Source: Candidatus Woesearchaeota archaeon
GTDB taxonomy: Archaea; Nanobdellota; Nanobdellia; Pacearchaeales; GW2011-AR1
Assembly (NCBI GenBank): GCA_964509675.1
Contig: CAZDXC010000001.1
Location: 115,973-179,972, forward strand
DNA length: 64,000 bases
Direction: 5' to 3'
Position 1 is the first letter of the stretch. Every line of letters starts with the position of its first letter. Below, one piece after another: positions 13,479 to 39,238 of this stretch. Made by a program: the position numbers and the translations under genes. The notes beneath the pieces were generated by a model. It made no database searches. It saw only the letters and a program-made list of their open reading frames with translations, and was not told the DNA's origin.

Positions 13479-13512
13479 TTTTCAATGTCTAGCGATGCGT
13501 ATGCGTAATCCC
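13479..13512 (-). promoter_or_regulatory. conserved GC-rich leader element (copy A) immediately 5' of the rps12 start codon
   Basis: Plus-strand TTTTTCAATGTCTAGCGATGCGTATGCGTAATCC contains the shared core ATGCGTATGCGTAAT. It abuts the ATG on the coding strand as ...CATTGAAAAATG. Confidence 0.5.
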
Positions 13513-13577
13513 TTTTTAGTCCCATGATTATTCATAAAGAAATTAGTTTTTAAATGTTTTCAGAAGAATCAGAGGAA

Positions 13578-13991
13578 TTACACAATTCTCAAATCTTTCC
13601 CAAAAAAATCCTTCACAATTTTTTTCAACTCTATTAATCGCCTTTTGTTTCTTCCGATTAATGCAGCCTTGTTTTGAATTCCTGCTGTGAGAATTATCTC
13701 ATCATCTTTTATTTCCAAATCTTTGAATGTAAGCGGACGAACAATATTTTCTATGAATTGTTTTGCATTATGAATTCCTTTAGGACTTGGAATGACTCTT
13801 ATTTTTTTCCCCAAAATCTCGCTGATTTTTTTTACGTTCTTTCCTCCCTCTCCTACAGCTCTTATGACAAACTCTTTTGGAACGCAAAATATTATTGTAT
13901 CATTGTATTTTATACAAAATCTCGTTCGTATCTTTGTAATCTGGTTAAAAAGATTCAGATGCCTCATATCCTGCATGTTTATCGTATTCAT
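13578..13991 (-). CDS. nusA: archaeal NusA-like KH-domain transcription termination factor
   Basis: A 137-aa two-KH-domain protein (VIRAVGEGGKNVKKI ... LIGRNKRRLIELKKI) in the conserved position between rpoA and rps12. Confidence 0.8.
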   Translation of the reverse strand: MNTINMQDMRHLNLFNQITKIRTRFCIKYNDTIIFCVPKEFVIRAVGEGGKNVKKISEILGKKIRVIPSPKGIHNAKQFIENIVRPLTFKDLEIKDDEIILTAGIQNKAALIGRNKRRLIELKKIVKDFFGKDLRIV

Positions 13992-14047
13992 CTTTTTTTA
14001 TAAGTGTTGTAGAATAATTTGTTTTATAAATTTAATTGTTTCAGAAA

Positions 14048-17000
14048 TTATTTATTCGTGTCTTCAACGATTTTTTTCTTTGCTATTTTCTTTTCTTCTT
14101 CTTTTTTTATTAATGGACCTACAACTTTAACCATCAAACCTGGAAGCCCGGTTCCAACAGGAACAGGCTGATTCAGCATTATGTTTTCTATGACACTGAC
14201 AAGTCTGTCTTTGCTTCCTTTTATTGTTGCATTGATAAATTGTTTTCCGGGAGTTTCAAATGTTGCCCTTGCCAAGATTGAAGATTTTTGTGCTATAATT
14301 CCCATTCTTGTAACTCCTTTTATTTCTCCTGTATTTGTCATGGCATCTGAAATGAGTTTTAGATGTCTCTCATTAATGTCCAATCCCTGCGTGTTTATTA
14401 CATTATAAATTTCATCCATTATTAATTGTCTTGCAACTTCTATTCCAAATGTGTCAGCAACTTCATACAAGTCATTTGAAATAACTCTGTCAGAATCAAC
14501 TTCTTTTAATTCGATTATTTTTTTCAAATTTGTTCCGAGAGTCATTATTATGTAATCTCTGTCTTTCTTAACTATAAGAATCTGCTTAATTCCCTTAATA
14601 CCAGAGATTATTGTTTTTTTTAGTTTTTCTTTAAGCTGATAAATTTCTTTAAAACTGAACTCAGAAGCGTTTAGAGTTATTGAATCTGATTTTTCCCTTG
14701 CTTTAAAGCCCAAATCATTCAGCCTCTCAACAACAGTCTTTATTGAACTGTGAGTTTGCCTTAATCCTGTTTTGTCAATTACTATTTCAATTGTCTTGTT
14801 GCTAAAATTGAGATTTATCTCAGAGGCAATTTCTCTTAATGTTACCTCTTTGATTTTCTCGGCAAAAACTTTGGCATTTTTTTCATTGTTGTATTCTTTT
14901 TTCAGGAAGATTTCCATTTTCGGAGAAGAAGGTTTTTTCCTTGCATCAAAAATTTCTATTAATCTTGGAAGTCCCATTGTAATCTGCATTTCCTGAACTC
15001 CTGCAAAATGGAATACATTCAATGCCATCTGAGTTGAAGGCTCTCCAAAAGACTGCGCTGTGACAATCCCTATCGCTTCTCCCGGATTAATTTGTTTTTT
15101 GAGATGCAGCTTTGAAACATCCATTCCATCATCCCCATATTTAAATTGTATCAGATTATTGTTGCTGTCTCTGACAGTTCCATCGTATTCTATTCTCAAA
15201 TCCTGCAAGGCATTTGCCAGTCTTCTGTACAAGTATCCTGACTTCGGCGTTCTTAATGCAGTATCCATGAGAGAATCTCTTCCTGTAATAGCTCCGAAAA
15301 AGAATTCATCTGGCCTTAATCCTTTTATAAAAGAACTTTTTATAAATCCCCTTGCAGCAGGAGTAAGGTCCCCCTGCCTGAAAAATGATAATGTTCTCCC
15401 ATTATATCCAATGTCAATTCTTTTTCCCCATAAAGCCTGTTGCCCCACACATGAAGCCATTTGAGTAATATTCAGAATATTTCCTCCTCCTCCGGATTTA
15501 ATCATGTGATTCACAGGATTTTCTTTGGGAAATTCTCTCTTGACAATTTCTCCTATCTTTGTTCTTACTTCATTCAGTGCCTGAAGTATCTTTATCTCTC
15601 TTGACTCTTCTTCTGTCTTTCCCGGAATTCTCTCAAGCTCGCCTTTATTGTAGCTTTCTATAATTTCTTCTGTTTTCTTCTCGGCTTTCTTTATTATTTC
15701 TTCTCCTGCATCAATCACGCTTTGATTCAAATCCAAATCTTCAACAGAAATTGTTATTCCCCTGTCTGACAGATATTTGACACCCAAATTAAACACTTTT
15801 CTTATTGTTTCAAATGTTTCATTTGTTCCGACTTTCTCATCAAGGACTTTTATAAATCCCCCGTCTTCGCTTCCGAATAATGTTTTGTCTATTTCTCCTT
15901 TAGTGACTTCTCCATTTCTTATGCTGACAGAATCATTAGAGAAATTTATTTTTGGAAGTATTAATGAAAACATTTCTTTTCCTGTTATGTTCTTTTTTGA
16001 TATTTCCTGATTAATGCCTGATTTGAAAAGGATTTGATTTGCATAATCATTTGAGAATTCCTCTTCTCCAAGAAGATAATTTCCTGTTATTGCGTCTCCT
16101 ATACATCCGATTAAATTTGTGTTATTCTTCGGAGAAATTAAATTTTTCTTTACATCCAAGAGAATTTTTGCTTCTGCCCTTGCTTCTTCTGTCTGCGGAG
16201 AATGTATGTTCATTTCATCCCCGTCAAAATCTGCATTATATGGAGTAACCACAGAAGGATGTAACCTGAAAGTTCTTCCTGGAAGCACCTTAACAAAATG
16301 GGCCATCAGGCTTCCTCTGTGCAAACTTGGATGCCTGTTGAATAAAACAACATCTCCGTCCTGAAGATGTCTCTCAACTTTATACCCCGAATCAAGTTCA
16401 TTGATTATTTCTTCTTTCAAGTCAGGAGTTATTTTTTTTCTCTTTCCGTCAGGTCTTATAATATAATTTGCTCCTGGATATTCTTCTCCCCTCTCAATTA
16501 ATTCTTTCAGTTTTTCAATATTCAAGTCAGTGACACTTTCTGCAACAGTAACTACCTTTGCAATTTCATAAGGAATTCCTACTTCATTGATTGATATGTA
16601 TGGGTCTGGAGAAATTACTGTTCTTCCCGAATAATTTACTCTTTTTCCAGCAAGATTTTTTCTTATTCTTCCTTCTTTTCCCTTTATTCTTTCCATAATT
16701 GTTTTTAATGGTTGTCCTGAACGGTGTCTTGCAGGAGGTATTTTTGCTACGCTATTGTCAAAAAATGTTGTGACATGAAATTGTAATAAATCCCACAAAT
16801 CTTCTATTATTACTTCAGGAGCTCCTGCATTCAGATTTTCCCAAAGTCTTTGGTTTGCTCTTATAATATCAGAAAGCTTATGAGTAAGGTCATCTTCGCT
16901 TCTCTCTCCTGATTCCAAGATAATGCTTGGTCTTACTGTTACGGGAGGGACAAGAAGCATAGTCAAAACAGCCCATTCTGGTCTGCATGTGGTTGGATTT

Positions 17001-17542
17001 ACACCAATTTTTTTCAATTCTTCGTTTGGAATATTAACGAGCATTTCTCTTATTTCAGTAGGAAAAAGTCTTGTCTTTCCAATGAAAAAACTTGTCGGCT
17101 TATCAAGTTTAATTCTTTCATGCACAGCACCACAATGCGGACATTTCTTTGAATCCTTTGCCTTTTTTGCTCTCTCGCTTGGAGTATATTTTTCCAAATC
17201 TTTGTCAGCAATCAAGAGTTTTCCACACTCTCTGCAAAAACATCTTAATGCCAGTTCAATTAAAGAGACATATTTCAAATGTATTATGGGTCTTGCCAAA
17301 TCAATGCTTCCAGGATGTCCCAAACATTCTTTCAGTCTTCCTCCGCATGTTCTGCATCTCACTCCCGGGTCTATCGCACCAAGACGTAAATCCATCAGTC
17401 CTCCGTCAACAGGATATCCATCTATATTATAAAGTTCAGGCGTGACTATCTTTGCAGCAGAGATTTTCTTGATGTCTTCTGGACTAAACAAGGCAAATCT
17501 TATTTCTTCTACTTTCTTCTTTATTGGTTTTTGTTCTATCAT
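14048..17542 (-). CDS. rpoA: DNA-directed RNA polymerase subunit A, a fused A'+A'' single ORF
   Basis: The N-terminal zinc clamp is CRTCGGRLKECLGHPG and the active site is YNADFDGDEMN. The bridge-helix region is GLRPDEFFFGAITGRDSLMDTALRTPKSGYLYRR and the A''-type trigger loop is GEAIGIVTAQSFGEPSTQMALNVFHFAG. All of these lie in one uninterrupted 1164-aa frame. Confidence 0.95.
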   Translation of the reverse strand: MIEQKPIKKKVEEIRFALFSPEDIKKISAAKIVTPELYNIDGYPVDGGLMDLRLGAIDPGVRCRTCGGRLKECLGHPGSIDLARPIIHLKYVSLIELALRCFCRECGKLLIADKDLEKYTPSERAKKAKDSKKCPHCGAVHERIKLDKPTSFFIGKTRLFPTEIREMLVNIPNEELKKIGVNPTTCRPEWAVLTMLLVPPVTVRPSIILESGERSEDDLTHKLSDIIRANQRLWENLNAGAPEVIIEDLWDLLQFHVTTFFDNSVAKIPPARHRSGQPLKTIMERIKGKEGRIRKNLAGKRVNYSGRTVISPDPYISINEVGIPYEIAKVVTVAESVTDLNIEKLKELIERGEEYPGANYIIRPDGKRKKITPDLKEEIINELDSGYKVERHLQDGDVVLFNRHPSLHRGSLMAHFVKVLPGRTFRLHPSVVTPYNADFDGDEMNIHSPQTEEARAEAKILLDVKKNLISPKNNTNLIGCIGDAITGNYLLGEEEFSNDYANQILFKSGINQEISKKNITGKEMFSLILPKINFSNDSVSIRNGEVTKGEIDKTLFGSEDGGFIKVLDEKVGTNETFETIRKVFNLGVKYLSDRGITISVEDLDLNQSVIDAGEEIIKKAEKKTEEIIESYNKGELERIPGKTEEESREIKILQALNEVRTKIGEIVKREFPKENPVNHMIKSGGGGNILNITQMASCVGQQALWGKRIDIGYNGRTLSFFRQGDLTPAARGFIKSSFIKGLRPDEFFFGAITGRDSLMDTALRTPKSGYLYRRLANALQDLRIEYDGTVRDSNNNLIQFKYGDDGMDVSKLHLKKQINPGEAIGIVTAQSFGEPSTQMALNVFHFAGVQEMQITMGLPRLIEIFDARKKPSSPKMEIFLKKEYNNEKNAKVFAEKIKEVTLREIASEINLNFSNKTIEIVIDKTGLRQTHSSIKTVVERLNDLGFKAREKSDSITLNASEFSFKEIYQLKEKLKKTIISGIKGIKQILIVKKDRDYIIMTLGTNLKKIIELKEVDSDRVISNDLYEVADTFGIEVARQLIMDEIYNVINTQGLDINERHLKLISDAMTNTGEIKGVTRMGIIAQKSSILARATFETPGKQFINATIKGSKDRLVSVIENIMLNQPVPVGTGLPGLMVKVVGPLIKKEEEKKIAKKKIVEDTNK

Positions 17543-17555
17543 TTTTATTTTTTAT

Positions 17556-17676
17556 TTCAGTGTTTCGCGAAGTTTTGTTTTGTCTCGCAATGCGTATGCG
17601 TAATGTGTTGTTTTGTCTCGCAATGCGTATGCGTAATGTGTTGTTTTGTCTCGCAATGCGTATGCGTAATCGCTAT
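17556..17676. repeat. three tandem 35-bp direct repeats (TTGTTTTGTCTCGCAATGCGTATGCGTAATGTG) filling the rpoB-rpoA spacer
   Basis: Copies lie at about 17573-17608, 17609-17643 and 17644-17676. The last copy ends in AATCGC and overlaps the rpoB stop codon. The TTTCAGTG leader module sits at 17556. Confidence 0.8.
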
Positions 17677-20600
17677 TCGTATTTGTTTTTCAGTCCGAAT
17701 GTTGTGTGGATGTGCAATCCCTGAAGCTCTTCAAGCAGAAGCTTGAATGCATAAGACATTTCTACTGGCTCTATGTCTTCGCTCCCGCACATAGGACAGA
17801 TTAATTTATTCCTTGCGTTATCATCAATTCCAATGCTTCCGCATTTCATACATATTGGAAGAACAACTTTGTCTGAATCATATCTTTCTTTCAGCAATAA
17901 AGAAGAGCCATGGGCAACTAATGCTTCCTGTTCCATTTCTCCTAATCTTAATGCTCCTCCTCTTGCCCTTCCTTCTATCGGCTGTCTTGTTAATAATGCG
18001 ACTTTTCCAGAAGCTCTTCCATGCATCTTGTTTCCTACCATGTATTTCAGTTTCAGGTAATACAAATTTCCGACAAATATTTTTGCAGACATCCTCTTTC
18101 CTGTTATCCCGTTATACATTGTTTCTTTCCCGTCATACCTAAAACCAAGATTCCTCAATTGCTCTTCCAACTGCTTTTTTCCTATTCCTGAAAAGCTTGT
18201 CCCGTCCATAATTTCTCCGTTAAGGCTCCCTACTTTTCCTGCAATTAATTCTAACAAGTATCCAACAGTCATTCTGCTCGGCAATCCATGAGGATTAAAA
18301 ATTACATCAGGCCTTACTCCCCTTGAAGTGAAAGGTATATCTTCTTCAGGAACAATCATTCCAATAACTCCTTTTTGTCCATGAGATGTTGCAAACTTGT
18401 CTCCAAGTTCAGGAACTCTTTGGTCACGAGTTCTTACCTGAACTATCTTGTTTCCTTCTGAATCTTCTGTTATAAAAACACCATCTACAATTCCTTTTTC
18501 TTCCTGTCTCATCGTAATGCTTGACTCTTTTTTTGTTTTAATGGAAATTTCTCTTGCTTCTGACAAGAATTTTGGGGGAGACATTTTCCCAATCATAACT
18601 TCTCCCTCATCTACTTCTGCTTCAGGATAAATGATTCCATCACTTTCCAAATGTTTGTAACTTGCTTCTGTTCTGTATCCAGAAGCGTCTTTTTCGGGAA
18701 TAGCAATCTCATCTTTTAGCCCTCCTGCATAATTCATTTCTATTGCACTATAAGGACGGAAATAGAAACTTCTTCCAACACCCCTGTCCAAACTTCCCTT
18801 ATTAAATACAAGGGCATCTTCCATGTTATATCCCTCATAAGTCATGATTGCTACAACCAAATTTTGTCCTGCAGGATATGTATTAAGAGTATCATAAACA
18901 AAGCTTCTCACAATCGGTTTTTGGGGATATTGTAAAATACTTACATCAGTATCTAATCTACAAAGATAATTTGCAGAATAAAGTCCAAGTGCCTGTTTTT
19001 GTGTTTTGCTTCCTCTGTTGAGTCTTGAACTTTGGTCATGATTTCCATATGGAACCAAACTTGTAACAACTCCAAGCAAATCCATATTATCAATTTCAAG
19101 ATGGGTGCTCTCTGAAGTTAGTTCCTCCTCGTACAAGGCAACTAATGTGTTTTCTTCTTCGGCAGCATCTATATACTCTATTATTCCTTTATTCAACAAA
19201 TCATTCCATTTTAATTCACCCTGCTCAATTTGTATCTTGTGCTCATTTTTTAATCTCGAGATTCCGTTTTCTGAAATTATCAAAGGACGCAATACCCTTC
19301 CTGATTCTGTGGAAATTAAAACTGTCTTAAATCCTACATCACTTCTAACACTCATTTGTATGGGGAAATTTCCTTCACGTCTTTTTTCTCTTATTTTTTT
19401 TACAAATTCCTCTGGTTCTTTTGCATTTCCTATAAATCTTCCGTTAAAGAACACTTCTGCTCCTTCAAATCCTTCCCTTTCCATTCCAAGAGATTTCAAA
19501 TCCTTGAAAAATTTCTCATTATCAAGTTCTACTCTTGTTGAAATTTTGCTTAATATTGCAAGGTTTTTTCTTAAACCAATTTCAGTTCCTTCTGGCGTCT
19601 CTATCGGACAGAACCTTCCATAATGAGTCGGATGAAGAGTTCTTGCCAGAAAGTTTTCCTGATCAGAAGGAAGCATGCTTGAAACTCTCTGTAATTGAGA
19701 AATCATTGCAAGATAATTTGTCTTATCCATGTTTTGGGTTACCCCGCTTCTTTCTCCTGTCCAGCTTCCTGTTGCGATTGCAGATTCAACCCTGTGGGAA
19801 AATAAAGTTGATTTTGCTATAACACGGATAGAAAAGAATTTTTTTCTTTTTGATGATTTTTGAATTGAATACTGAATATCTCTTATCAAAATTCCGAGAT
19901 TAACTCTGAAAAGATTTGCCAATAAATCGCCTGAAAGCCTGACTCTTTTATTTGAATAATGATCTTTGTCTGTTCTTAGTTCAGGATTTTCTTTTGCAAT
20001 TAAAAATTGTTTTATGAGTTTGCAGATTGTTATTGCCTTGTTTATCCTGTCCTCTTTTTTTTGTCCTATATGGGGAAGCAAATAAGAATCCATTCTTTGC
20101 TTTATTCTGTCAAGAATTTCTTTTTTTGTCCCTTGGAGCCCTGTTTTTTCAGCAATAAACATCATGGCATCTTCTTTTGTTGCAATATCAACAAATTCAT
20201 ACAAATTAACAATAACAGAATCGGTTTCTTTTCCAATATATTTTGCAATATCAGATTCTTTTATTAATCCAAGAGATTTCAAAATGACTATTGCAGGCAA
20301 ATCTTTGAATCTGCTGAATGACAGTTCAATAATTCCTTCCTTGCTTTCCGAAATTGTGATAGGAATTCTGTATGTTCCTTTTAATGAAAATAATCTAAGG
20401 TTTAAGTTTCCCTTGCTGTTCACTTCAATGAATGGCTGGTTTTCAGCAAGGTCTTCTGCCATGACCATTACTCTTTCATTTCCATTTATTATGAAATATC
20501 CTCCTGGGTCTAGAGGGTCAGAATAATTTTCAATCAATTCTTCATCGCTCATTCCATGGGTGTTGCATGCCTTGCTCTTTACCATTATCGGAATTTTCCC

Positions 20601-20927
20601 GACTTCAACAGTCTCAGAATCAACTATGTCTCCTTTTTTCACTGTTATCTCAAGGGTTACAGGAGCAGAGTAAGTAAGATTTCTCAATCTTGCTTCATAA
20701 GGCATTATCAGGGAAGAACTTCCGTCGGCTTCAACGACTTTTGGTTTTTCAATTTTTACTTTCCCCAAGCTGATTTCAAATTCTTCATTATTCATACTTT
20801 CAGAAATTTCATTGACAATCTCCTGCATTCTGTGCTCTAAGAATTCATTGAAGGAAGTAATGTTAGATTCCACTAAAGAATGTTCTTCAAGATATTTTTT
20901 TATTACAAGATGATTGTCTTTTTTCAT
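17673..20927 (-). CDS. rpoB: DNA-directed RNA polymerase subunit B (unsplit B'+B'')
   Basis: A single 1084-aa ORF with Rpb2-family N-terminal, hybrid-binding and C-terminal Zn (CPMCGS) regions. Confidence 0.95.
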   Translation of the reverse strand: MKKDNHLVIKKYLEEHSLVESNITSFNEFLEHRMQEIVNEISESMNNEEFEISLGKVKIEKPKVVEADGSSSLIMPYEARLRNLTYSAPVTLEITVKKGDIVDSETVEVGKIPIMVKSKACNTHGMSDEELIENYSDPLDPGGYFIINGNERVMVMAEDLAENQPFIEVNSKGNLNLRLFSLKGTYRIPITISESKEGIIELSFSRFKDLPAIVILKSLGLIKESDIAKYIGKETDSVIVNLYEFVDIATKEDAMMFIAEKTGLQGTKKEILDRIKQRMDSYLLPHIGQKKEDRINKAITICKLIKQFLIAKENPELRTDKDHYSNKRVRLSGDLLANLFRVNLGILIRDIQYSIQKSSKRKKFFSIRVIAKSTLFSHRVESAIATGSWTGERSGVTQNMDKTNYLAMISQLQRVSSMLPSDQENFLARTLHPTHYGRFCPIETPEGTEIGLRKNLAILSKISTRVELDNEKFFKDLKSLGMEREGFEGAEVFFNGRFIGNAKEPEEFVKKIREKRREGNFPIQMSVRSDVGFKTVLISTESGRVLRPLIISENGISRLKNEHKIQIEQGELKWNDLLNKGIIEYIDAAEEENTLVALYEEELTSESTHLEIDNMDLLGVVTSLVPYGNHDQSSRLNRGSKTQKQALGLYSANYLCRLDTDVSILQYPQKPIVRSFVYDTLNTYPAGQNLVVAIMTYEGYNMEDALVFNKGSLDRGVGRSFYFRPYSAIEMNYAGGLKDEIAIPEKDASGYRTEASYKHLESDGIIYPEAEVDEGEVMIGKMSPPKFLSEAREISIKTKKESSITMRQEEKGIVDGVFITEDSEGNKIVQVRTRDQRVPELGDKFATSHGQKGVIGMIVPEEDIPFTSRGVRPDVIFNPHGLPSRMTVGYLLELIAGKVGSLNGEIMDGTSFSGIGKKQLEEQLRNLGFRYDGKETMYNGITGKRMSAKIFVGNLYYLKLKYMVGNKMHGRASGKVALLTRQPIEGRARGGALRLGEMEQEALVAHGSSLLLKERYDSDKVVLPICMKCGSIGIDDNARNKLICPMCGSEDIEPVEMSYAFKLLLEELQGLHIHTTFGLKNKYE

Positions 20928-21121
20928 TATACCACCACTCTGAAATAAACTCCTGATTTTCTTTCAATTTTGATTATGTCTCCGACATCGCAGTCTTCTG
21001 GCAAAGCCACATCTGTGGAAAGAATTTTTGGCAATTGTGCCTTAGAAATATTTAATCTATTTAATAATTCTTCAACTTCTTTTTCATTGAGTTTTGTGTG
21101 TTTGGGTTGGAGAACGTGCAT
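20927..21121 (-). CDS. rpoH: DNA-directed RNA polymerase subunit H (Rpb5 homolog)
   Basis: A 64-aa ORF starting HVLQPKHTKLNEKEVEELL and ending DIIKIER.S...YFRVVV, which is the Rpb5 C-domain pattern. It sits immediately upstream of rpoB and its stop/start is shared with rpoB at 20927. Confidence 0.8.
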   Translation of the reverse strand: MHVLQPKHTKLNEKEVEELLNRLNISKAQLPKILSTDVALPEDCDVGDIIKIERKSGVYFRVVV

Positions 21122-21296
21122 CTTATAGAGGATAAATTATTTACAATAAATGTTAAAGGAAATACTAAACTTTAACAACTTTGGAATAATAAAAAATAGC
21201 AAAATTTAGTTTTTAAATCTTTGGGTGTCTTTGCTTTGCACAATAAGTCGTTCCTGCACAAAAAGTCTTTAAATAATCGTTTAATCAGTATAATTT

Positions 21297-21437
21297 ATGG
21301 GAAAAACATATAGATGTCCTGATTGTGGAGCCACAGCATTTCATATAGAAGTAGATGAGGAAAATAGGGACAGAATGGTTATAAAATGTTGGTCTCCAAA
21401 GAAATGCAGCAGGACAATAATTGTAAAAGAAATCTGA
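21297..21437 (+). CDS. small C4 zinc-ribbon protein (46 aa), not in the ORF track
   Basis: Hand translation gives MGKTYRCPDCGATAFHIEVDEENRDRMVIKCWSPKKCSRTIIVKEI. It lies divergent from rpoH. Confidence 0.35.
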   Translation: MGKTYRCPDCGATAFHIEVDEENRDRMVIKCWSPKKCSRTIIVKEI

Positions 21438-21460
21438 TTTTATGCAAATCTGATATGGTA

Positions 21461-21596
21461 TGGCCCCGATGGGATTTGAACCCACGACACCTGGATCTCT
21501 TTGCCTATTGTAGTTTCTTTGAGCGCCGAATCTTTCTTTTCTAAAGAAAGTTGGGCATAAAAGTCCAGTGCTCTAACCAGACTGAGCTACGGAGCC
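21461..21596 (-). tRNA. tRNA-Lys(UUU) with a 61-nt intron at the canonical 37/38 position
   Basis: The 5' exon is GGCTCCGTAGCTCAGTCTGGTTAGAGCACTGGACTTTTA and the 3' exon is ATCCAGGTGTCGTGGGTTCAAATCCCATCGGGGCCA. The acceptor has seven pairs (one G-U), the D-stem is GCTC/GAGC, the anticodon stem is CTGGA/TCCAG, and the T-arm is GTGGG-TTCAAAT-CCCAT. CCA is not encoded. Confidence 0.75.
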
Positions 21597-21648
21597 GTTT
21601 CACGTCTCCTCACTGCTATGAAACCTACCCTTAAATTGGAAATTCCAT

Positions 21649-21661
21649 AGAGCTACGGAGC
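21649..21661 (-). repeat. 13-nt direct duplication of the tRNA-Lys 5' end (GGCTCCGTAGCTC), 66 nt upstream of the tRNA
   Basis: An identical 13-mer lies upstream of the tRNA gene, followed by TTTAAGGGTAGG, a plausible TATA-like box about 39 nt from the tRNA 5' end. Confidence 0.5.
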
Positions 21662-21708
21662 CTTAATTCACTAAGTAAATTTGTATTTAAAAAATCTTTG
21701 TATAAGAA

Positions 21709-22035
21709 TTAAACAAACTTTTTCAGCCTGTTTTCAAGTTCGTCTCCAGACATAGCTCCCACAAATTGTTCAATAGGTTTTCCGTCTTTTAGCAAAACAA
21801 AATTAGGAATTGAACTGATATTGAACTTTCTTGCAAGCAACTGATTATCTTCTACATTAACTTTGCCGAATTTTATTTTTTTTCCTAATTTCTCACTTAA
21901 TTCATCAATTACAGGAGCCATCATCAGGCAGGGCATGCACCATTCTGCAAAAAAATCTATGAAAACCATTCCCTTTTTAATGAATTCTTCAAATTCTTTG
22001 TCTGTCAATTCAGGAACATTATCATTATTTGTCAT
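21709..22035 (-). CDS. trxA: thioredoxin (non-canonical CMPC active site)
   Basis: FFAEWCMPCLMMAPV sits in a 108-aa thioredoxin-fold protein. Confidence 0.85.
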   Translation of the reverse strand: MTNNDNVPELTDKEFEEFIKKGMVFIDFFAEWCMPCLMMAPVIDELSEKLGKKIKFGKVNVEDNQLLARKFNISSIPNFVLLKDGKPIEQFVGAMSGDELENRLKKFV

Positions 22036-22068
22036 TTTCAGTGCCTCGCGATGCGTATGCGTAATCGC
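22036..22068 (-). promoter_or_regulatory. conserved GC-rich leader element (copy D) abutting the trx start codon
   Basis: Plus-strand TTTCAGTGCCTCGCGATGCGTATGCGTAATCGC carries the GCGAT/ATCGC inverted flanks around the core. Confidence 0.5.
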
Positions 22069-22162
22069 TTTGTCATTCTAGATTATCATAAAAATGATTT
22101 ATAAAAGTTTTGTTACAATATAAAATAAGAAGATTTAAATAATATCTATTTGGTTTTTCCCC

Positions 22163-23215: not shown

Positions 23216-23220
23216 ATTCT

Positions 23221-28227: not shown

Positions 28228-28257
28228 TTTTATTTAATCTTTTTAACAAATAATAGG

Positions 28258-30374: not shown

Positions 30375-30399
30375 TAAGAAAAAGAGATTTTAAATTATT

Positions 30400-30750: not shown

Positions 30751-30858
30751 TTGAAATTCCTATTTCGAATGAATGGAAATCGAAGATTTGCTTTCATAAA
30801 AAAACTAATAATATTGAAATTTATAAGTTTATAATAAACTGAAAAATATATAATATTT

Positions 30859-33075: not shown

Positions 33076-33261
33076 TTCTTTATTATATCAAATTTATTTG
33101 ACTATTTAATAGCATGTTTGGTTATTTCAAGATTACAACTTTTATATTTTTTGCACCAATCTTCACATTTATTAGCCCAATTTATATCATCATAAATCAA
33201 TTTACAGTCTACACACTGGTAATAGGACTTATTATTTTTATTAATTTTTTTTACCATTCTG

Positions 33262-33441
33262 CTAACAGCACCCTCCACAATTTGATTTTTTAGTAGTTTC
33301 TTTTTCATAATTATCTGCATGTTCTGAACAGCAAAATGTTTTTTCTCTTGTTCCAATAAATACAGGGTCTTTCACATCCCTGAATACTTCTTTGCCCCTT
33401 TCAATTTTCTTTTTGCAGTATTCGCACTTTTTTCTGAACAT
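33262..33441 (-). CDS. TRASH/zf-FCS-like small metal-binding protein (59 aa), not in the ORF track
   Basis: Hand translation gives MFRKKCEYCKKKIERGKEVF...TFCCSEHADNY...NCGGCC (Cx2C...FCxSxH). It sits just upstream of copA on the same strand and overlaps the ORF-track frame 33102..33356. Confidence 0.5.
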   Translation of the reverse strand: MFRKKCEYCKKKIERGKEVFRDVKDPVFIGTREKTFCCSEHADNYEKETTKKSNCGGCC

Positions 33442-33445
33442 TTTA

Positions 33446-33664
33446 TCATTTCTGGATTTGTTTAACCAACCACACTATAAAAAGTATCAGAGCAACTAAA
33501 GCCAATATTCCGAAAATCCATCCGAAAAACATCATTCCAGAACCATAGCTTCCATACATCATATTCATCATTCCGAACCCTGCTCCGCCAAATCCAAAAC
33601 TCGCTAAAAGTAACAATGCAACTACTGCTACTACCGCCCATACGAGTGAATTATTGTCTTTCAT
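33446..33664 (-). CDS. small Gly/Met-rich membrane protein
   Basis: A 72-aa ORF with two TM helices flanking a GFGGAGFGMMNMMYGSYGSGMM segment. It ends 4 nt before the TRASH ORF start. Confidence 0.4.
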   Translation of the reverse strand: MKDNNSLVWAVVAVVALLLLASFGFGGAGFGMMNMMYGSYGSGMMFFGWIFGILALVALILFIVWLVKQIQK

Positions 33665-33712
33665 TTATGCCTCCTTTCAACAATTTATTTATCATTCATA
33701 TTTAAGTTTTCT

Positions 33713-33955
33713 TTATTTGTAATACTCTAAACAATATAAAGTATTTGTATGATGACTCAGATGTTGTTTCCACCAATTCAAATCATCTTCATATTCAGGA
33801 AGCCTGCATTGTTCAGGAATGCTTTCAGAGCGATATTTCTCTAATTCTGCATTGTCATTTATAGCATTTCCTGTAAGTTTGTATCTGTACACAAAAATTC
33901 CTGCAATTAACAAAATCAGAAAAATTCCAATCATAATAAAAATTTTTTTATTCAT
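33713..33955 (-). CDS. small membrane-anchored hypothetical protein (start taken at the internal MNKKIF)
   Basis: One TM helix followed by a soluble domain. The upstream part of the longer ORF overlaps the neighbouring gene. Confidence 0.35.
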   Translation of the reverse strand: MNKKIFIMIGIFLILLIAGIFVYRYKLTGNAINDNAELEKYRSESIPEQCRLPEYEDDLNWWKQHLSHHTNTLYCLEYYK

Positions 33956-34397
33956 TTTTCTTTCCTTTTTTTGATTGATACAGCATAATTCCCGTTCCAA
34001 ACAAATTTGAAACTATTCCCAATATTAAAAAATAAACCGTATATTTAGAAAGACTGGCTAATGCAGAAACTCCTATTAATGCTCCCAAGAATGGAAGTAC
34101 ATTCAGCAGATAGTGGCTGCAGCAGAGTATCATGCTTACAGAGGATATCCCTCCTGAAGCAATCGTGGTAGAACATCCTATTGCATTCTTTCCTCTTAAA
34201 TATGTGAATAAACCAACCTGAAAGCCAAAACCTCCTACGAGCAGGACAAGTAAAATCCAATACTTTCCTATTATCTCTGTCGCCATACTCGGAAATTTCA
34301 GGAGATATAAAACAATTAAATTCACAGATAATACAATTAATACAGCGATTATACCGTTTCTTATAGCTCTTTTTTTTATATTCATTCTCTGCAGCAA
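33948..34397 (-). CDS. hypothetical integral membrane protein
   Basis: A 149-aa ORF with four predicted TM helices. Confidence 0.45.
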   Translation of the reverse strand: MLQRMNIKKRAIRNGIIAVLIVLSVNLIVLYLLKFPSMATEIIGKYWILLVLLVGGFGFQVGLFTYLRGKNAIGCSTTIASGGISSVSMILCCSHYLLNVLPFLGALIGVSALASLSKYTVYFLILGIVSNLFGTGIMLYQSKKGKKNE

Positions 34398-34858
34398 TCT
34401 AAAAGTTTTTTTAATTTTTCAGAAAATTTGGATTTTCTGTCATTATCATTAAGAAAATTCATTTTTGTATCTGCGAGATTTATCTGCCAAAACATTGAAT
34501 AGAGTTCAAAGGCGTCCTTGTACAAATGTTCAGCTTCTTTTTTCTTTTTTTCCTTTAGAAATTTATTTCCTGTTTCTATCAGACGCATGCTTGAAGCAAG
34601 AAGATGCTTGCTCATGCACCATTTCTCGCTTTCGTCTTCATTGACCAATTTCTTTAAATGCTCTTTTCTGATTTCTCTTATCTTATCCAATAATTCCAAA
34701 AATTTCTCGTCTTCTGTTTTTACATAACTGAAATATGCATGTTCTTCCAGACTTACAAGGTTCATTAATGCTATTGAAAGATCCTCTCCGCTGGACAAAT
34801 CCATTTTGTTTTCTCTGTTAAATTCTATAACTTTTTTCACAAATTTTTCAGTATTCAT
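34382..34858 (-). CDS. hypothetical soluble protein
   Basis: A 158-aa helical, charged ORF. Confidence 0.4.
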   Translation of the reverse strand: MNTEKFVKKVIEFNRENKMDLSSGEDLSIALMNLVSLEEHAYFSYVKTEDEKFLELLDKIREIRKEHLKKLVNEDESEKWCMSKHLLASSMRLIETGNKFLKEKKKKEAEHLYKDAFELYSMFWQINLADTKMNFLNDNDRKSKFSEKLKKLLDCCRE

Positions 34859-34863
34859 TTTAA

Positions 34864-35412
34864 TTATTTAGTAATAAGCCAGAATGTTAATGACAAAACT
34901 ACCAATATGATAAACATGAAAGACAATCCTTGATAAGGGTAGAGAACTTTTCCTTTTTTCTTTTTTAGATAATCGCTGAAGCTGAAAGCTCCCCAAACGA
35001 ACAGAGTTCCTGTAATCATTCCGAATAAAAGTTTGTCTATTCCGTAAATTCCCATTCCGAGCATAGAATGATGTTCTGGCATTGATTTCACCATCTCAAA
35101 ATTTGTTATTATCCCTGCAGTGTAAAGAGGAACTGCAAGCAAAGCGAATGACAATAAAACCAAGACAACTTCCTGAAAAGGAATTTTTACCTTTTTCTTC
35201 ACAAGCCATTTGTTGAACCATAATGCTGTGGAGACTATAAAAGCCCCTAAAAATAACCCGACAATTGAATCATCAACTCCGAGATATCTTGCAGTCCCTA
35301 TTCCTGCAACTGCACCGGCAGTGCATAGCGGACAATGAGCAGAAACTAACTGTGAGGTTATAACTACAATGAATGGAATTAACATTGCTGAAATTAATAT
35401 TGCTTTTTTCAT
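34864..35412 (-). CDS. integral membrane protein with a CPLC motif
   Basis: AHCPLCTAGAVAGIG near the N-terminus, a SMPEHHSMLGMG loop, and about five TM helices. Confidence 0.45.
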   Translation of the reverse strand: MKKAILISAMLIPFIVVITSQLVSAHCPLCTAGAVAGIGTARYLGVDDSIVGLFLGAFIVSTALWFNKWLVKKKVKIPFQEVVLVLLSFALLAVPLYTAGIITNFEMVKSMPEHHSMLGMGIYGIDKLLFGMITGTLFVWGAFSFSDYLKKKKGKVLYPYQGLSFMFIILVVLSLTFWLITK

Positions 35413-35662
35413 CTTTGTTTTTAAATAAATAAAAAATAAAAAAAATAAAAAAAATTAACAACCTCCGACCATTGTGTCGTAACCGCTTCTGACAACCTGT
35501 CCTGTTCCGCTTCCTCTCAGAAAAAAGACATAAATGACAACAAGAGCGAGCACTCCTATAACAATCCAGGGTAGTATCTTTTTCCAATCCATTCTGGATT
35601 CTCCTCCTTTATCAGTTTTTTCTTGGTGGCTTTTGCTTGGACTACAACAATCTTCCATTTTC

Positions 35663-36307
35663 TTAACATTCACCTACCATGTTTCCGTTTGTTTGTCCTT
35701 TTTCAATTCCACGGTATTTGTTACTTGCAAGGTTAATGTAGTTAAGTTCTATTCCTTGGTTTTTTAACACAGCTGCTTTTTGCTGATGAATCCCTGGAAA
35801 AAACAAAACTTTCCATTTTCCAAGTTCCTCTAAAATCTGTTCATCGCTGAACTCTGTTCCGTGGTATTTTATCAGATATTTTGCAAGTCCTCTCATAGCA
35901 TAACTATGAGCGCAACCGCATGCAGGGCTTCCGTCACTAAAGATTATTGATGCTGCACCGCAACAATATTCGCATGAAATGCTTCCTGCTATTTTTATAT
36001 ATCTCTGCAGTTGTTCTCCCTGGAGCGTCTCACTCACATCAATCTGTCCGAGCCTTTGAATCGTAGCATCTGCCAATTCTGGATTGTTCACAGAAATGTC
36101 ATTATACCTAACGTTCAACTCTTCTCCATAAATTCTTGGAGTTCCTGTGGGAAGAACTTCTGAAGCAGAAACAGTTCCAAGTCCTGTTCCGATACTGGAG
36201 TTTTTTCCTGTTGTCTTTCCGATTCCATACATTAATAGTCCTGCTAAAACTACAATTACAATCATCTGAAAAACAAACCTGGAATTGTTCTTTTTTTCTT
36301 CTGACAT
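35663..36307 (-). CDS. membrane-anchored Cys-rich protein
   Basis: N-terminal TM segment, then CEYCCGAASIIFSDGSPACGCAHS. Confidence 0.45.
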   Translation of the reverse strand: MSEEKKNNSRFVFQMIVIVVLAGLLMYGIGKTTGKNSSIGTGLGTVSASEVLPTGTPRIYGEELNVRYNDISVNNPELADATIQRLGQIDVSETLQGEQLQRYIKIAGSISCEYCCGAASIIFSDGSPACGCAHSYAMRGLAKYLIKYHGTEFSDEQILEELGKWKVLFFPGIHQQKAAVLKNQGIELNYINLASNKYRGIEKGQTNGNMVGEC

Positions 36308-36396
36308 TTTGAAACCTTGTTATTTAATTAACTTTTTCAAGGAATAGCTTTTTATATCTGCTTTGGAGAAACTAGTTTCATTAAAAAATGAGAAAA

Positions 36397-36870
36397 TTAA
36401 TTCTTCAACACAACAATATTATTCATTCCACGCCTTTTTCTCTCAATTAATTGCTTTGCTTCAAGCTTATCAAGGAGCCTTGTAATTCCGACTTTTCCTA
36501 TTCCCAACTTTTCCATCAATGTATTTTGGAATATAGCGCCATTTTCATCTTGCAGAATGTCAATGGTTTTCTTTTCTTTTTCATCCAATCCGTCAAGATT
36601 CAGTTTCTTTTTTCTTTCTTTTTTTGTTTTGATAATTATCCTTTCTTTTGGTTTTGAAAACATCATCACTAACCCTGAAATAAAAATAACCCCTGTTATG
36701 CTCAGACTGAGCCATGTTTGTGTTCTTATTGTGTTATACATTGTGCAGGAAGGTCCATGAGTGCAGGTTTGCTCAACAATGCTTCCCAATGCAGAATTAA
36801 AAATCCAGACAATAATTGCTATTATAATAGAAATCCCTATAATCAAAATTCCTACATGCTTGTTTTCCAT
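36397..36870 (-). CDS. membrane-tethered winged-HTH transcriptional regulator
   Basis: Two N-terminal TM helices, then a C-terminal wHTH (IDILQDENGAIFQNTLMEKLGIGKVGITRLLDKLEAKQLIER). Confidence 0.5.
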   Translation of the reverse strand: MENKHVGILIIGISIIIAIIVWIFNSALGSIVEQTCTHGPSCTMYNTIRTQTWLSLSITGVIFISGLVMMFSKPKERIIIKTKKERKKKLNLDGLDEKEKKTIDILQDENGAIFQNTLMEKLGIGKVGITRLLDKLEAKQLIERKRRGMNNIVVLKN

Positions 36871-36909
36871 TTTTATTCTATTTTTAAGTCCTATATAAAA
36901 CTTATGAAG

Positions 36910-37305
36910 TTATTTTTTCTTTTTCCTCTCATAGTCTTTAATTGCTGCTTTTAATGCATCGCTTGCTAAATTTGAACAATGCATTTTTATCGGAGGCAGT
37001 CCTTTAAGAGAATCAGCCACGTCTCTTCTCGTTATTTTCTCTGCTTCTCTAAGTGTTTTTCTTTTTGCAAGCTGAGTTATCATTGATGAGGTTGCTATTG
37101 CAGCAGCACATCCGAATGTTTTGAATTTTATGTCCTTGATTATATCTTTTCCTTTTTTGTTTTTTCCTACTTTAATGTAGAGCCACATAATATCCCCGCA
37201 TACAGGATTTCCCACTTTCCCTATTCCATCTGGGTTTTTTATCTCCCCCAAATTTTTTGGATTCATGAAATTTTTCATAACTTCTTTTGAATATTGTATT
37301 GTCAT
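36910..37305 (-). CDS. iscU: Fe-S cluster scaffold protein IscU/NifU
   Basis: GNPVCGD, FKTFGCAAAIAT and KMHCSNLA are the three conserved Cys motifs. Confidence 0.9.
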   Translation of the reverse strand: MTIQYSKEVMKNFMNPKNLGEIKNPDGIGKVGNPVCGDIMWLYIKVGKNKKGKDIIKDIKFKTFGCAAAIATSSMITQLAKRKTLREAEKITRRDVADSLKGLPPIKMHCSNLASDALKAAIKDYERKKKK

Positions 37306-37505
37306 TTTATTTCCTCTATTTCTAATAATTCCTTCTCAGTTTCAGGAACTTTTTTCCATTTGATTTTCTTTTTGATATTGCATTTATGTATAGTTCCATC
37401 GCTATCTTTTACATCTTCAGATACATAGATGCCTGCTTCTATACATGCTTTACAATCTGTAGTTATTATCTTCCCACATTCTGGACATTTGGCATAAGCT
37501 TTCAT
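37302..37505 (-). CDS. small zinc-ribbon protein
   Basis: CPECGKIITTDCKAC...HKC in a 67-aa ORF that overlaps the iscU start by 4 nt. Confidence 0.45.
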   Translation of the reverse strand: MKAYAKCPECGKIITTDCKACIEAGIYVSEDVKDSDGTIHKCNIKKKIKWKKVPETEKELLEIEEIK

Positions 37506-37506
37506 T

Positions 37507-37746
37507 TTATTTTTCTTTTTTACTTTTGTTTAGTTTTTGGATTAATTCATCAATCTGTTTTTTGTTCATTCCGTGTGCTCTGCACCCGTCTTCTAGGGTT
37601 TCATACATTGCCATACCGCATCCAATGCAATGCAGTCCTCTCCCAAACAAAACATTTGCAGAGTTTGGATTTTTTTCCAGGATTTCTGCAAAAGTCATTT
37701 TTTTTGTTATAGTTTCTTTTTTATTTTTCATTTTATTATCAGACAT
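37507..37746 (-). CDS. DUF1858-type redox disulfide protein
   Basis: MTFAEILEKNPNSANVLFGRGLHCIGCGMAMYETLEDGCRAHGM. Confidence 0.6.
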   Translation of the reverse strand: MSDNKMKNKKETITKKMTFAEILEKNPNSANVLFGRGLHCIGCGMAMYETLEDGCRAHGMNKKQIDELIQKLNKSKKEK

Positions 37747-38038
37747 GACTCCAAATTTAGAGGATAGATTGATAAAGAAAAACAGGGGTTTTCTTTATTC
37801 TCCGAATTCATCTCCTTCTATTTCTTCAAAATTTAATCCTTCTTCTTCCAATTCTTCCTCGCATGCTGCCTCATTTTTCAAATCACAATTATATTCCTCA
37901 AATGTTTTTTTATTCTTCATCTTTATCTTTTATTTTAATTGATTCTTCAAAACTGCATGATTCGCAAGTCATCTTTTCCTCATCACAGCATGCATATTGC
38001 TTTTTTCTTTTTTTTGTTTTTTTCATTTTCTCTTTTTA

Positions 38039-39184
38039 TTATCTTGCTATTGGGCTTATCTTCCTTAATTTCATGACTATTTTAGGAAGAACTTCCAAAA
38101 AATAACGTATTTCTTCTTCTGTTGTATATTTACTTATACTTATTCTTATTGAACTGTTTGCCTGAAGAGGAGTTAATCCTATAGCCTTTAATACATGACT
38201 TGTTTCAAGGGTATGTGAAGCACATGCGCTTCCTGTTGAAGTGCAGATTCCAAAATTTTCCAAATATCCTCCAACTGACTCTCCCTCAACATTGTTAAAG
38301 GAGATATTTACGTTATTACAGAGTCTTTTTTCTTTCGATCCATTAAGCCTTATATTTGGAATTTCTAAAATTCCTTCTATCAATTTATCTCTCAGTTCAG
38401 TCATTTTTTCAATATCTTTTTTCTTTGCAACCTCAACTGCTTTTGCAAACCCGACAATTCCAGAAACGTTTTCTGTTCCGCTTCTTATGTTTCTTTCATG
38501 TCCTCCCCCATGCATTATCGGAACTATTTTTATTCCGTCTCTGATATATAATGCACCAACTCCTTTTGGCCCGTAAATTTTATGCGAATTGAGAGTCAAC
38601 AAATCAATGTTCTGCTTTTTTACATTTATCGGAATTTTTGTGAAACTTTGGCATGCATCTGTATGAAATAAAACTCCTTTTTTTCTGCATATTCTTCCAA
38701 TTGCTTCCAGGTTTTGAATTGTTCCTATCTCGTTATTTCCATGAATTACAGAAACAAGAATCGTCTTGTCTGTTATTGAATCTTCCAGTTCTTTCAGGTC
38801 AATAAATCCTTCTGCATCAACATCAAGATACTTGACATCTGCTCCCTGACTTTCAAGCCATTTGCATGCATTCAGCACGCAATCATGTTCAATTCTCGTT
38901 GTTATTATCTGATTTTTTTCAGGATAATTTGCAAAAAATAATCCTTTCAATGCAAGATTATTGCTCTCAGTTCCCCCTGAAGTAAAAATAATCTCAGAAG
39001 TTCTTGCACCTATTGCCCTTGCAATAATGTTTCTGCTTTTTTCAAGCGCATTCTTTGCTTCCTGCCCCATAAAATGAATAGAAGATGCATTCGCATACTT
39101 TTCACTAAAATAAGGAAGCATTGTCTTCAAAACTTCGTCATCTACTTTTGTTGTCGCTGCATTATCAAAGTATATTCGTCTCAT
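38039..39184 (-). CDS. iscS: cysteine desulfurase
   Basis: A class V aminotransferase fold with the PLP-Lys region SHKIYGPKGVGALY and the catalytic Cys loop STGSACAS. Confidence 0.95.
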   Translation of the reverse strand: MRRIYFDNAATTKVDDEVLKTMLPYFSEKYANASSIHFMGQEAKNALEKSRNIIARAIGARTSEIIFTSGGTESNNLALKGLFFANYPEKNQIITTRIEHDCVLNACKWLESQGADVKYLDVDAEGFIDLKELEDSITDKTILVSVIHGNNEIGTIQNLEAIGRICRKKGVLFHTDACQSFTKIPINVKKQNIDLLTLNSHKIYGPKGVGALYIRDGIKIVPIMHGGGHERNIRSGTENVSGIVGFAKAVEVAKKKDIEKMTELRDKLIEGILEIPNIRLNGSKEKRLCNNVNISFNNVEGESVGGYLENFGICTSTGSACASHTLETSHVLKAIGLTPLQANSSIRISISKYTTEEEIRYFLEVLPKIVMKLRKISPIAR

Positions 39185-39204
39185 TATGCAAAATCTCCTT
39201 TCCT

Positions 39205-39238
39205 TTTTCAGTGTTTTGCGATGCGTATGCGTAATCGC
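39205..39238 (-). promoter_or_regulatory. conserved GC-rich leader element (copy E), 20 nt upstream of the iscS start
   Basis: Plus-strand TTTTCAGTGTTTTGCGATGCGTATGCGTAATCGC. A GGAGAT Shine-Dalgarno-like sequence lies between the element and the ATG. Confidence 0.5.

Follow-up and report, generated by a model that had tools for sequence, protein, structure and literature searches.

The 64,000-nucleotide (nt) stretch of a Candidatus Woesearchaeota genome considered here (GenBank assembly GCA_964509675.1, contig CAZDXC010000001.1, positions 115,973 to 179,972 of the forward strand; "the window" below) carries a short GC-rich element at four sites, adjoining minus-strand genes for ribosomal protein S12, the RNA polymerase subunits RpoB and RpoA, a thioredoxin (trx), and an IscS-like cysteine desulfurase (Table 1). 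Its 15-mer ATGCGTATGCGTAAT occurs in six exact copies on the plus strand (13495, 17590, 17623, 17656, 22051, and 39221); 0.03 would be expected by chance, none of 100 shuffles reaches six copies, and allowing up to two mismatches adds no further copy in the window. Local GC content is 30-37%. All six copies read sense to the genes they adjoin, and on the coding strand the element takes the form GCGATTACGCATACGCATCGC-N4-CAYTGAAA. A first-pass annotation had already recognized the motif, its constant orientation, and its closeness to start codons, and these observations stand; at both S12 and trx the element ends directly at the ATG. What it drew from them, that translation, oxidative-stress, and Fe-S genes have a cis-regulatory unit in common, is not supported by the comparisons presented here.

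Some details of the original description also need adjustment. The inverted 5-mers GCGAT and ATCGC reported around the core are perfect only at trx and iscS; the corresponding flanks are GGGAT..ATCGC at S12 and GCGAT/CACAT..ATTGC in the tandem units. Copies at S12, trx, and iscS end in the CAYTGAAA tail, which the rpoA array has a single time, at its end, and not in its internal units; CAYTGAAAA by itself is not enriched in the window (5 found versus 6.9 expected). The site assigned to the rpoA leader is actually the rpoB-rpoA spacer, which holds three 33-nt units and a half-unit. The first unit begins in the G that forms the last base of the rpoB stop codon TAG (17673-17675), and the rpoA ATG lies at 17542. 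Reading the rpoB stop instead as the TGA in GGACTGAAAAAC, with a flank repeat, was rejected: RpoB ends GLKNKYE-TAG, so that the repeat is coding sequence.

Table 1. Genes, element copies, and leader features in the window (aa, amino acids; CM, covariance model; ORF, open reading frame; uORF, upstream ORF)
Feature	Position	Strand	Basis and remarks
Ribosomal protein S12	13056-13478	-	Pfam
NusA-like KH protein		-	Pfam; neighbor gene
RpoA, unsplit	14048-17542	-	Pfam
RpoB	17673-20927	-	Pfam
Thioredoxin (trx)	21709-22035	-	Pfam
Class-V aminotransferase, IscS/NifS-like cysteine desulfurase	38039-39184	-	Pfam; behind an ArsR-family gene and a 99-aa ORF
Element copy 1, GGGATTACGCATACGCATCGC-TAGA-CATTGAAAA	13479-13512	-	End adjoins S12 ATG (13478); CM 52 bits
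TATA box TTTAAAAA, S12 promoter	13547-13554	-	Sequence and orthologue comparison; kept in orthologues (TTTAWAAAyyAATTT)
rpoB-rpoA spacer array, three exact 33-nt units (cores 17656, 17623, 17590) plus terminal 3' half-unit CTTCGCGAAACACTGAAA of variant type	17555-17673	-	
trx element copy, GCGATTACGCATACGCATCGC-GAGG-CACTGAAA	22036-22068	-	End adjoins trx ATG (22035); CM 60.5 bits
Element copy in the spacer upstream of iscS	39205-39238	-	Followed by AAGGAAAGGAGATTTTGCATA, then ATG (39184); CM 57.9 bits
Spacer from 99-aa ORF to iscS, 111 nt, composite	39185-39295	-	Absent in L128 and L129
Putative remnant S12 start copy ATGGGACTAAAAA (true start ATGGGATTAAAAA)	13513-13525	-	29 nt after first T of TATA box, the ATG position in leaderless orthologues
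Putative remnant trx start copy ATGACAAA	22069-22076	-	29 nt after first T of TTTATAAA (22098-22105); empty orthologues have a single ATGACAAATAATG at this distance
S12 uORF, 18 codons, reads through element	13469-13525	-	UAA stop overlaps S12 codons 2-4
trx uORF, MTKRLRIRIARH and stop, 12 codons	22038-22076	-	UGA, then AA, then trx AUG (UGAAAAUG)

RpoA itself is a single unsplit ORF of 1164 aa with Rpb1 domains 1-5, which is unusual because A' and A'' are normally separate genes in archaea. This feature and a GC content of 33% might point to Thaumarchaeota, but that placement was rejected: a genome scan and the names of related proteins identify the organism as a DPANN archaeon of the Pacearchaeota type.

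The four sites share their sequence with a family of dispersed copies (comparison loci are cited by L numbers). The repeat is about 33 nt long and consists of a near-invariant 23-nt core (GCGAUUACGCAUACGCAUCGCGA; GCGATTACGCATACGCATCGCGA as shared by the aligned copies) and a variable, A-rich tail, often RRCACUGAAA. About half of the copies have the tail RRCACTGAA(A), and other tails run into a GGAG-type Shine-Dalgarno (SD) cassette. When one genome per species was searched for the exact 19-mer GATTACGCATACGCATYGC, 34 loci were found, 32 of them in 16 metagenome-assembled genomes (MAGs) labelled Pacearchaeota, Woesearchaeota, or Nanoarchaeota, with at most eight loci per MAG; the two others are bacterial, against about nine expected by chance by our own arithmetic. 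Six of the 34 lie at contig ends, as multi-copy repeats tend to do. The core does not differ, even in its loop, among the 16 MAGs, and their S12 genes share only about 80% DNA identity. No Rfam family matches the element at its sites at gathering or relaxed thresholds, no copy was found in the viral contigs searched, and a literature search turned up neither the sequence nor a description of it, in agreement with the initial impression that the motif had not been described.

An SD-spacer-start cassette, GGAGnTTTTGCATAATG, stands nearly fixed before unrelated genes (window 39185-39205; L001, L015, L026, L027, and L030) and looks like a portable ribosome-binding site.

The folding potential of the repeat is modest. 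The 5-bp GCGAT/ATCGC hairpin noted in the first pass exists, but at -6.3 kcal/mol its energy is no better than that of shuffles (z = -0.3), and a check for covariation found no compensatory change in this stem among the copies. Changes in the half-sites are C-to-T, with five G-U at pair 8-24, and the center is more conserved than the half-sites. A second lineage has the same three substitutions (GCCATTACGCATAGGCTTCGC) in every copy, at all three shared sites (S12, rpoB-rpoA, and trx); these break the GCGAT/ATCGC stem and create AAGCC/GGCUU around the same loop. One variant pair (G3C/C14G, G-C to C-G) is compensatory for a small, alternative stem of 3-4 bp common to both forms, with a covariation score of 0.057 versus 0.020 in shuffles (5 of 500 shuffles reach it), and this pair comes from one lineage. 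Terminal inverted repeats are absent: the sole inverted repeat, GCGAT/ATCGC, lies inside the first two-thirds of the element (from the 5' end), and no pairing involves the 3' tail. The hallmarks of C/D box small RNAs are a C box (RUGAUGA), a D box (CUGA), and correctly spaced guides of 12 nt. A C/D box or K-turn reading of the element (AUGA...CUGA) was rejected, as it has only the CUGA in its tail, no C box, an interval of 28 nt that is too short, and no Rfam match.

Comparison with relatives reveals insertion polymorphism at all four window sites, most orthologous junctions being without the element. For S12, 80 orthologous loci with 82-90% protein identity were fetched, and about 76 of them lack it. 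Most have the conserved TATA box and then, with no element, the ATG, at a mode of 30-31 nt from the first T (24 of 72), a distance so short that the genes must be leaderless or nearly so. The window has ATGGGACTAAAAA at exactly position 30 after the promoter, with the element next and the real gene (ATGGGATTAAAAAACG...) behind it. Among the S12 loci a covariance model finds copies only in L044, L051, and L052, and the S12 site itself is filled only in L044 and L052, the latter with the architecture of the window and a variant element. At trx, three of the four distinct related loci fetched (seven of eight contigs) are empty: L121-L127 read TTTATAAATCGTTCTTCTAATTATTTATC joined directly to ATGACAAATAATG, at the junction where the window has ATGACAAA, the element, and ATGACAAATAATG. 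In L118/L120 the identical junction is filled by a variant copy with a 63-nt nested insert. The rpoB-rpoA junction lacks the element in 22 of 24 cases (the empty spacer of L038 is GAAtaaataaaataataaaaATG), and L051 has one variant copy there, starting in the stop codon. All three related iscS junctions are without it; the genes overlap in L128, are separated by 2 nt in L129, and flank a different 85-nt insert in L130. The absence of the iscS spacer from L128 and L129 indicates that it is derived from insertions and composite.

By S12 nucleotide identity, L044, L051, L052, L060, L053, and L062 form one clade (85-91%), and the window is about 80% identical to all of them. Within this clade, L051 has a filled rpoB-rpoA site and an empty S12 site, L052 has a filled S12 site, and L060/L118 has a filled trx site with S12 and rpoB-rpoA empty. 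Such mosaic presence is not the behavior of a regulon signal. The window array ends in a half-unit of the variant type, like that of L051, so that the rpoB-rpoA site looks ancestral and later overwritten by canonical units.

Several other insertions were encountered at these junctions. Besides the element, the iscS spacer (39185-39295, minus strand) includes another inserted module, ATGAAAAACAGGAAATTT..., to which ATGAGCAAACAGGAAATTTGCC of L130 (615-700) and L015 (~5290-5420) is related, and an imperfect repeat, TGCAGGATAC(TG)AAAATG / TGCGGATACAAAATG; the iscS start ATGAG(A)CAAA is again duplicated in L130. In relatives the rpoB-rpoA spacer is a hotspot of unrelated inserts of 150-1475 nt with small ORFs (L040, L048, L049, L054, L057, L060, L065, L067, L068, L079, L081, L084, L092, L107, and L113), and the 1475-nt insert of L107 has longer ORFs. 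At S12, L038 (4170-4275) has a different 32-nt insert, AAAATTCAGCCAATGATATTCAGGAGAAAATC, with an SD sequence and a flanking start duplication (ATGGGACTGAATCAG / ATGGGATTAAAATCAG), while L050, L059, L069, L078, and L079 have unrelated, hairpin-containing leaders. The 180-aa "thioredoxin" called in L127 (601-1143) has been extended artefactually at its 5' end. Its TATA box and true start, at ATGACAAATAATG, are 216 nt downstream, a case that shows how start calling can go wrong in leaderless genomes.

The S12 and trx sites appear to retain traces of the insertions themselves. Truncated copies of the first 13 nt of S12, the first 8 nt of trx, and the first 13 nt of the tRNA gene at 21596 are each separated by exactly 29 nt from the first T of a TATA box ahead of them (13554 to 13525, 22105 to 22076, and 21691 to 21662, respectively), the distance at which undisturbed orthologues place their first nucleotide. 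Because of this match, transcription probably still starts at the remnant copies, and the element would be transcribed. The filled and empty junctions further suggest that S12 and trx in the window were leaderless genes, into which the element was inserted 13 nt from the start of S12 and 8 nt from the start of trx, the ORF being regenerated in each case by the repeat behind the element. The old 5'-terminal AUG would thus remain at the promoter and open a uORF of 18 or 12 codons that stops at or just over the regenerated AUG. Both genes are presumably still expressed by termination-reinitiation, helped at trx by the GAGG of the element copy, 8 nt before the AUG. The role in leader RNA entertained in the first pass therefore survives in part: at S12 and trx the element lies downstream of the likely transcription start site (TSS), hence in the leader, and must affect the start of translation, but control shared among the genes does not follow.

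Duplication of gene starts is specific to this element and not a general habit of these genomes: when 1347 gene starts were scanned with 12-mers, the two S12 duplications alone came up, against 4.6 control hits, so that generic duplications do not exceed background. Three non-tandem copies have exact flank repeats of 9 nt or more, versus 0.55 expected. Most element copies have no flank duplication at all, which also disposes of a universal target-site duplication of fixed length; where present, duplications are 8-15 nt long, and up to about 56 nt in L004. Those at S12, at trx, in L032, and in the tRNA leaders of L004 and L024 begin at nucleotide +1 of the gene. An apparent duplication in L001 (AAAATGAAAA) was discounted because it is of low complexity and recurs a third time at the real L5 start. 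A conserved leader peptide was likewise rejected, since the uORFs use all three sense frames of the core (RLRIRIA, DYAYAS, and AITHTHR), none of which has a stop codon.

Some copies outside the window lie in tRNA genes. In L006 and L021 the element sits in the anticodon loop of tRNA-Arg(UCU), as identified by the Rfam tRNA model, with the interruption at 37/38. The L006 copy forms a canonical hBHBh' (bulge-helix-bulge, BHB) motif, ACTGC-CTTC-TA^G ... GAAG-AT^A-GCAGT (CTTC/GAAG, h = 5, h' = 2; splice sites at ^). Its 5' splice site is the first G of GCGATTACGC, and the 35-nt intron is the whole element. L021 has a relaxed motif (3/4 helix) and a 36-nt intron, and the core of this intron is kept between two species with differing tRNA exons. 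From this pairing, the tRNA-Arg(UCU) copies are predicted to be spliced out as ordinary BHB introns. In L018 the core lies within a 74-nt tRNA-Thr(GGU) intron with a perfect 4/4 central helix, TTGG/CCAA. Ahead of the tRNA genes of L003/L004 and L024, 16 nt from the 5' end of the tRNA are repeated just before the element, and the intact tRNA comes 120-180 nt later.

The window itself has an intron-containing tRNA gene of 136 nt (21461-21596, minus strand), found by Rfam and missed by ARAGORN. Its first 13 nt (GGCTCCGTAGCTC) are repeated 66 nt upstream (21650-21662, minus strand), exactly 29 nt after a TATA box. L004 has the same arrangement, a partial copy and then the full tRNA, as do two places in L024; the element may or may not lie between the two.

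Protein-coding hosts are functionally diverse. Copies lie ahead of, or in the first codons of, genes for rpL5, rpL1, gyrB, the PolD small subunit, the CCA-adding enzyme, a SufC-like ABC ATPase, and several pilin-like membrane proteins; many are located 20-60 nt upstream of an SD sequence or ATG. Others adjoin stop codons, lie in 5' untranslated regions, or form short arrays. In-frame copies occur within arginase and at the 3' end of the AspRS gene, and translated copies are also found in membrane proteins; the arginase copy aligns to solved arginases as translated sequence, with about six extra residues. Of 31 informative sites, 29 have the element in the direction of the host transcript by our own classification of the gene maps, the exceptions being L013 and L022. 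Nested copies or foreign sequences always lie directly after ATTACGCATA in the loop (L008, L014, L017, L044, and L118). The 63-nt insert that interrupts the loop of the trx copy in L118/L120 (520-582; GCTATAACCCTGAAAGCAACAG...GGACATTGCGGAC) bears no relation to the element. L013, L014, and L017, from one MAG (JACOYL01), have in common a sequence with hairpin potential, TTCACTCGCAA...CGTTCGCATT, 20-60 nt 3' of the element, which may be a small RNA or another repeat module.

We consider it probable that the element is a short interspersed repeat spread by copying, that it is the same as a BHB tRNA intron or related to one, and that it is tolerated where it is spliced out, translated through, or compensated by duplication of a gene start. 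It would look leader-specific simply because it is found only where it is harmless. In a tRNA anticodon loop, the ends of the element would complete a BHB motif and be spliced as an ordinary intron; in ORFs, in-frame copies would simply be translated, given the absence of stop codons from every sense frame; and in leaderless genes, the element would survive when the gene's first nucleotides are repeated behind it. Spacer copies would come to adjoin stop and start codons because spacers are tiny in these genomes. At rpoB-rpoA, an old copy may have been overwritten and expanded into the 33-nt array, and the iscS copy may be nested in another inserted leader. The regulatory unit first proposed is difficult to reconcile with orthologues that mostly lack the element, unrelated host genes elsewhere, and copies in tRNA introns. 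Of the two findings that the first pass had named as speaking against its own proposal, a mobile or repeated element is what we now see; a lack of strand bias is not, the bias being strong.

As for the means of copying, we favor a hairpin- or homology-guided process on RNA or single-stranded DNA, linked to the tRNA intron, over a cut-and-paste transposon. The reasons are the lack of terminal inverted repeats and of a fixed target duplication, the sense bias, the nesting in the loop, and the flanking sequence carried along. A more specific version, in which the excised tRNA-intron RNA (or the hairpin) is copied back into the genome via the 5' ends of other transcripts, is a good deal less secure and in our view quite unlikely. 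One route could be template switching by a reverse transcriptase at RNA 5' ends, followed by recombination. Copying of this kind would explain why duplications begin at +1 of leaderless mRNAs and tRNAs, why copies are sense, and why some carry the 5' flanks of earlier host transcripts. If true, it would be the first direct footprint of archaeal BHB intron movement and of RNA-mediated insertion in DPANN archaea.

Several points count against a copy-propagated, tolerated repeat. A neutral passenger should drift, and the core does not, despite the divergence of the S12 genes around it, so something, whether copying machinery or function, reads the sequence. Occupation of the S12, rpoB-rpoA, and trx sites in a second lineage with the same three substitutions needs homogenization, reinsertion at hot spots, or a co-evolving partner, the last of which would mean function. 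Since most copies have no flank duplication, no one insertion chemistry can be described, and neither a reverse transcriptase nor a transposase was found among the 20 window proteins scanned. The sense bias could stem from selection or replication-strand bias instead of from the mechanism of copying, and the TSS, the use of the uORFs, and reinitiation are all inferred. The extreme conservation of the core, with a lineage variant that includes one compensatory change, makes a functional hairpin possible.

Such function could take the form of an RNA module, in which the invariant loop AUUACGCAUA, displayed by the hairpin, is recognized by a conserved RNA-binding protein or by an RNA partner and so controls translation, stability, or processing, with spread explaining only its origin. 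Identity of core and loop in 16 MAGs, the tRNA-Arg intron core kept between differing exons, the sense orientation and frequent placement shortly upstream of SD sequences or ATG, and the sites common to two lineages would all suit this idea, as would a variant lineage that keeps a hairpin around the same loop with another stem (AAGCC..GGCUU) and one compensatory pair. We nevertheless find it rather unlikely: most orthologues do without the element, close genomes each keep a different single site, the host genes have no common theme, and copies are translated inside ORFs or stand after stop codons. The stem, moreover, is no more stable than shuffles and shows no compensatory change in its five pairs, while the sole covarying pair represents one evolutionary event. 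An operator in DNA, with a transcription factor binding the GCGAT-N11-ATCGC inverted repeat or the ACGCAT direct dimer and repressing just downstream of the TSS, was the other form of regulation envisioned in the first pass. Its inverted and direct repeat symmetry, its place at about +9 to +45 of the likely TSS at S12 and trx, and the ArsR-family gene two genes upstream of iscS fit with binding of this kind. We give it hardly any credence, because the distance to promoters is not constant, with copies after stops, inside operons, in ORFs, and in a tRNA anticodon loop. C-to-T changes in the half-sites keep RNA G-U pairing and break the DNA palindrome, whose center is the more conserved part; a palindrome needs no strand bias, yet nearly all informative copies are sense; and orthologous promoters lack the element.

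Two further possibilities take the element as mobile or removable but by other means. It might be a REP-like single-stranded DNA element, a DNA hairpin copied by an HUH-type enzyme (IS200/IS605 TnpA or RAYT-like) or a similar one, with the orientation bias reflecting the replication strand. The likeness lies in the imperfect palindrome of about 33 nt, the preference for extragenic sites, the short arrays, and the strict orientation to one strand; the copy number (6 copies in 64 kb, 8 loci in one MAG), the lack of terminal inverted repeats and fixed target duplication, the insertions that strike other copies at one constant point of the hairpin loop, and the location of all six window copies within one GC-skew arm can be read in the same way. 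This seems improbable to us, given that no HUH or RAYT-like enzyme is among the 20 window proteins scanned, that REP sequences are normally species-specific in contrast to the invariant core in 16 MAGs, and that precise BHB intron copies and duplications from transcript +1 are not REP features; several copies also lie in ORFs and tRNAs. Alternatively, the copies at S12, trx, and elsewhere might be introns of mRNA, excised by a broad-specificity DPANN splicing endonuclease or another system to restore a leaderless transcript. The same sequence is a BHB intron in tRNA-Arg, an EndA with an L3 loop is associated in DPANN with much tRNA gene disruption (PMC5829648), and excision at S12 and trx would leave no scar, given the direct repeats on either side of those copies. 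At the window sites, however, BHB introns were rejected: no copy there has a BHB motif, strict or relaxed, whose splice sites coincide with its borders, and none of the six copies interrupts a gene. BHB-like matches elsewhere occur at the background rate (44% strict, 97% relaxed), BHB formation requires complementarity where the flanks are direct repeats, and the arginase copy, as noted, aligns as protein. Excision from mRNA is accordingly very improbable in our estimation.

Known systems offer partial parallels. REP and REPIN sequences are about 30-40 nt long, form imperfect hairpins, are mostly extragenic and noncoding, adjoin stop codons, occur in tens of copies and short arrays, and break assemblies. 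The present repeat resembles them in size, imperfect hairpin, extragenic lean, stop-codon contact, copy number, arrays, lack of coding capacity, and assembly breaks; it differs in its core, invariant across species, its sense bias, its preference for gene 5' ends, its double life as a tRNA intron, and its archaeal host, and we know of no RAYT partner for it. The Rickettsia palindromic elements and the palindromic repeats with coding potential in Methanocaldococcus jannaschii, 100-150 bp long, are found in frame in protein genes and in RNA genes without destroying them. Harmless copies in ORFs and RNA genes and stop-free sense frames are common ground, although the present repeat is only about 33 nt long and its copies in ORFs are a minority. 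The byp elements and GC clusters of yeast mitochondria and the bypassed segment of T4 gene 60 are short GC-rich inserts in AT-rich genomes, in coding sequence, with matching codons flanking them. Here, by contrast, the start codon lies within the duplication and no stop follows a take-off codon; translational bypass of the byp or gene 60 type was rejected as unnecessary, because the start codon itself is duplicated. In Caldiarchaeum, a displaced 5' fragment of tRNA-Thr resulted from integration of a mobile element, a 1.8-kb insert with a recombinase (Sugahara et al. 2012, PMC3293823). L004, L024, and the window tRNA likewise have a tRNA 5' fragment upstream of an intact intron-bearing gene with foreign DNA between; their inserts, unlike that one, are 50-180 nt long and have no gene, and starts of protein genes are affected too.

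The closest described phenomenon is the transposition of BHB introns among tRNA genes of Thermoproteales (Fujishima et al. 2010), for which PMC4090602 gives the mechanism of gain as unknown and splicing of the BHB as the basis of tolerance. Those copies are confined to tRNA genes, whereas the repeat described here is also found at mRNA 5' ends, in spacers, and in ORFs where no BHB can form; it is also common to many species, forms arrays, and nests in itself.

How archaeal BHB introns are gained is an open question, and similar introns in different tRNA genes of Thermoproteales have been the only prior trace. The repeat adds a case in which a single sequence of 23-35 nt would be spliced as a tRNA intron and, besides, be scattered as an insertion among mRNA starts, spacers, and ORFs. 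It also calls for caution in practice: a GC-rich motif in a few housekeeping leaders of a MAG can be a repeat instead of a regulon, one that breaks assemblies and misleads start-codon calling. With its filled and empty orthologous sites, nested copies, and lineage variants, the family provides a concrete system in which intron gain, loss, and tolerance may be reconstructed. It also suggests that leaderless genes in very compact genomes can gain a leader, a uORF, and a Shine-Dalgarno sequence in one step.

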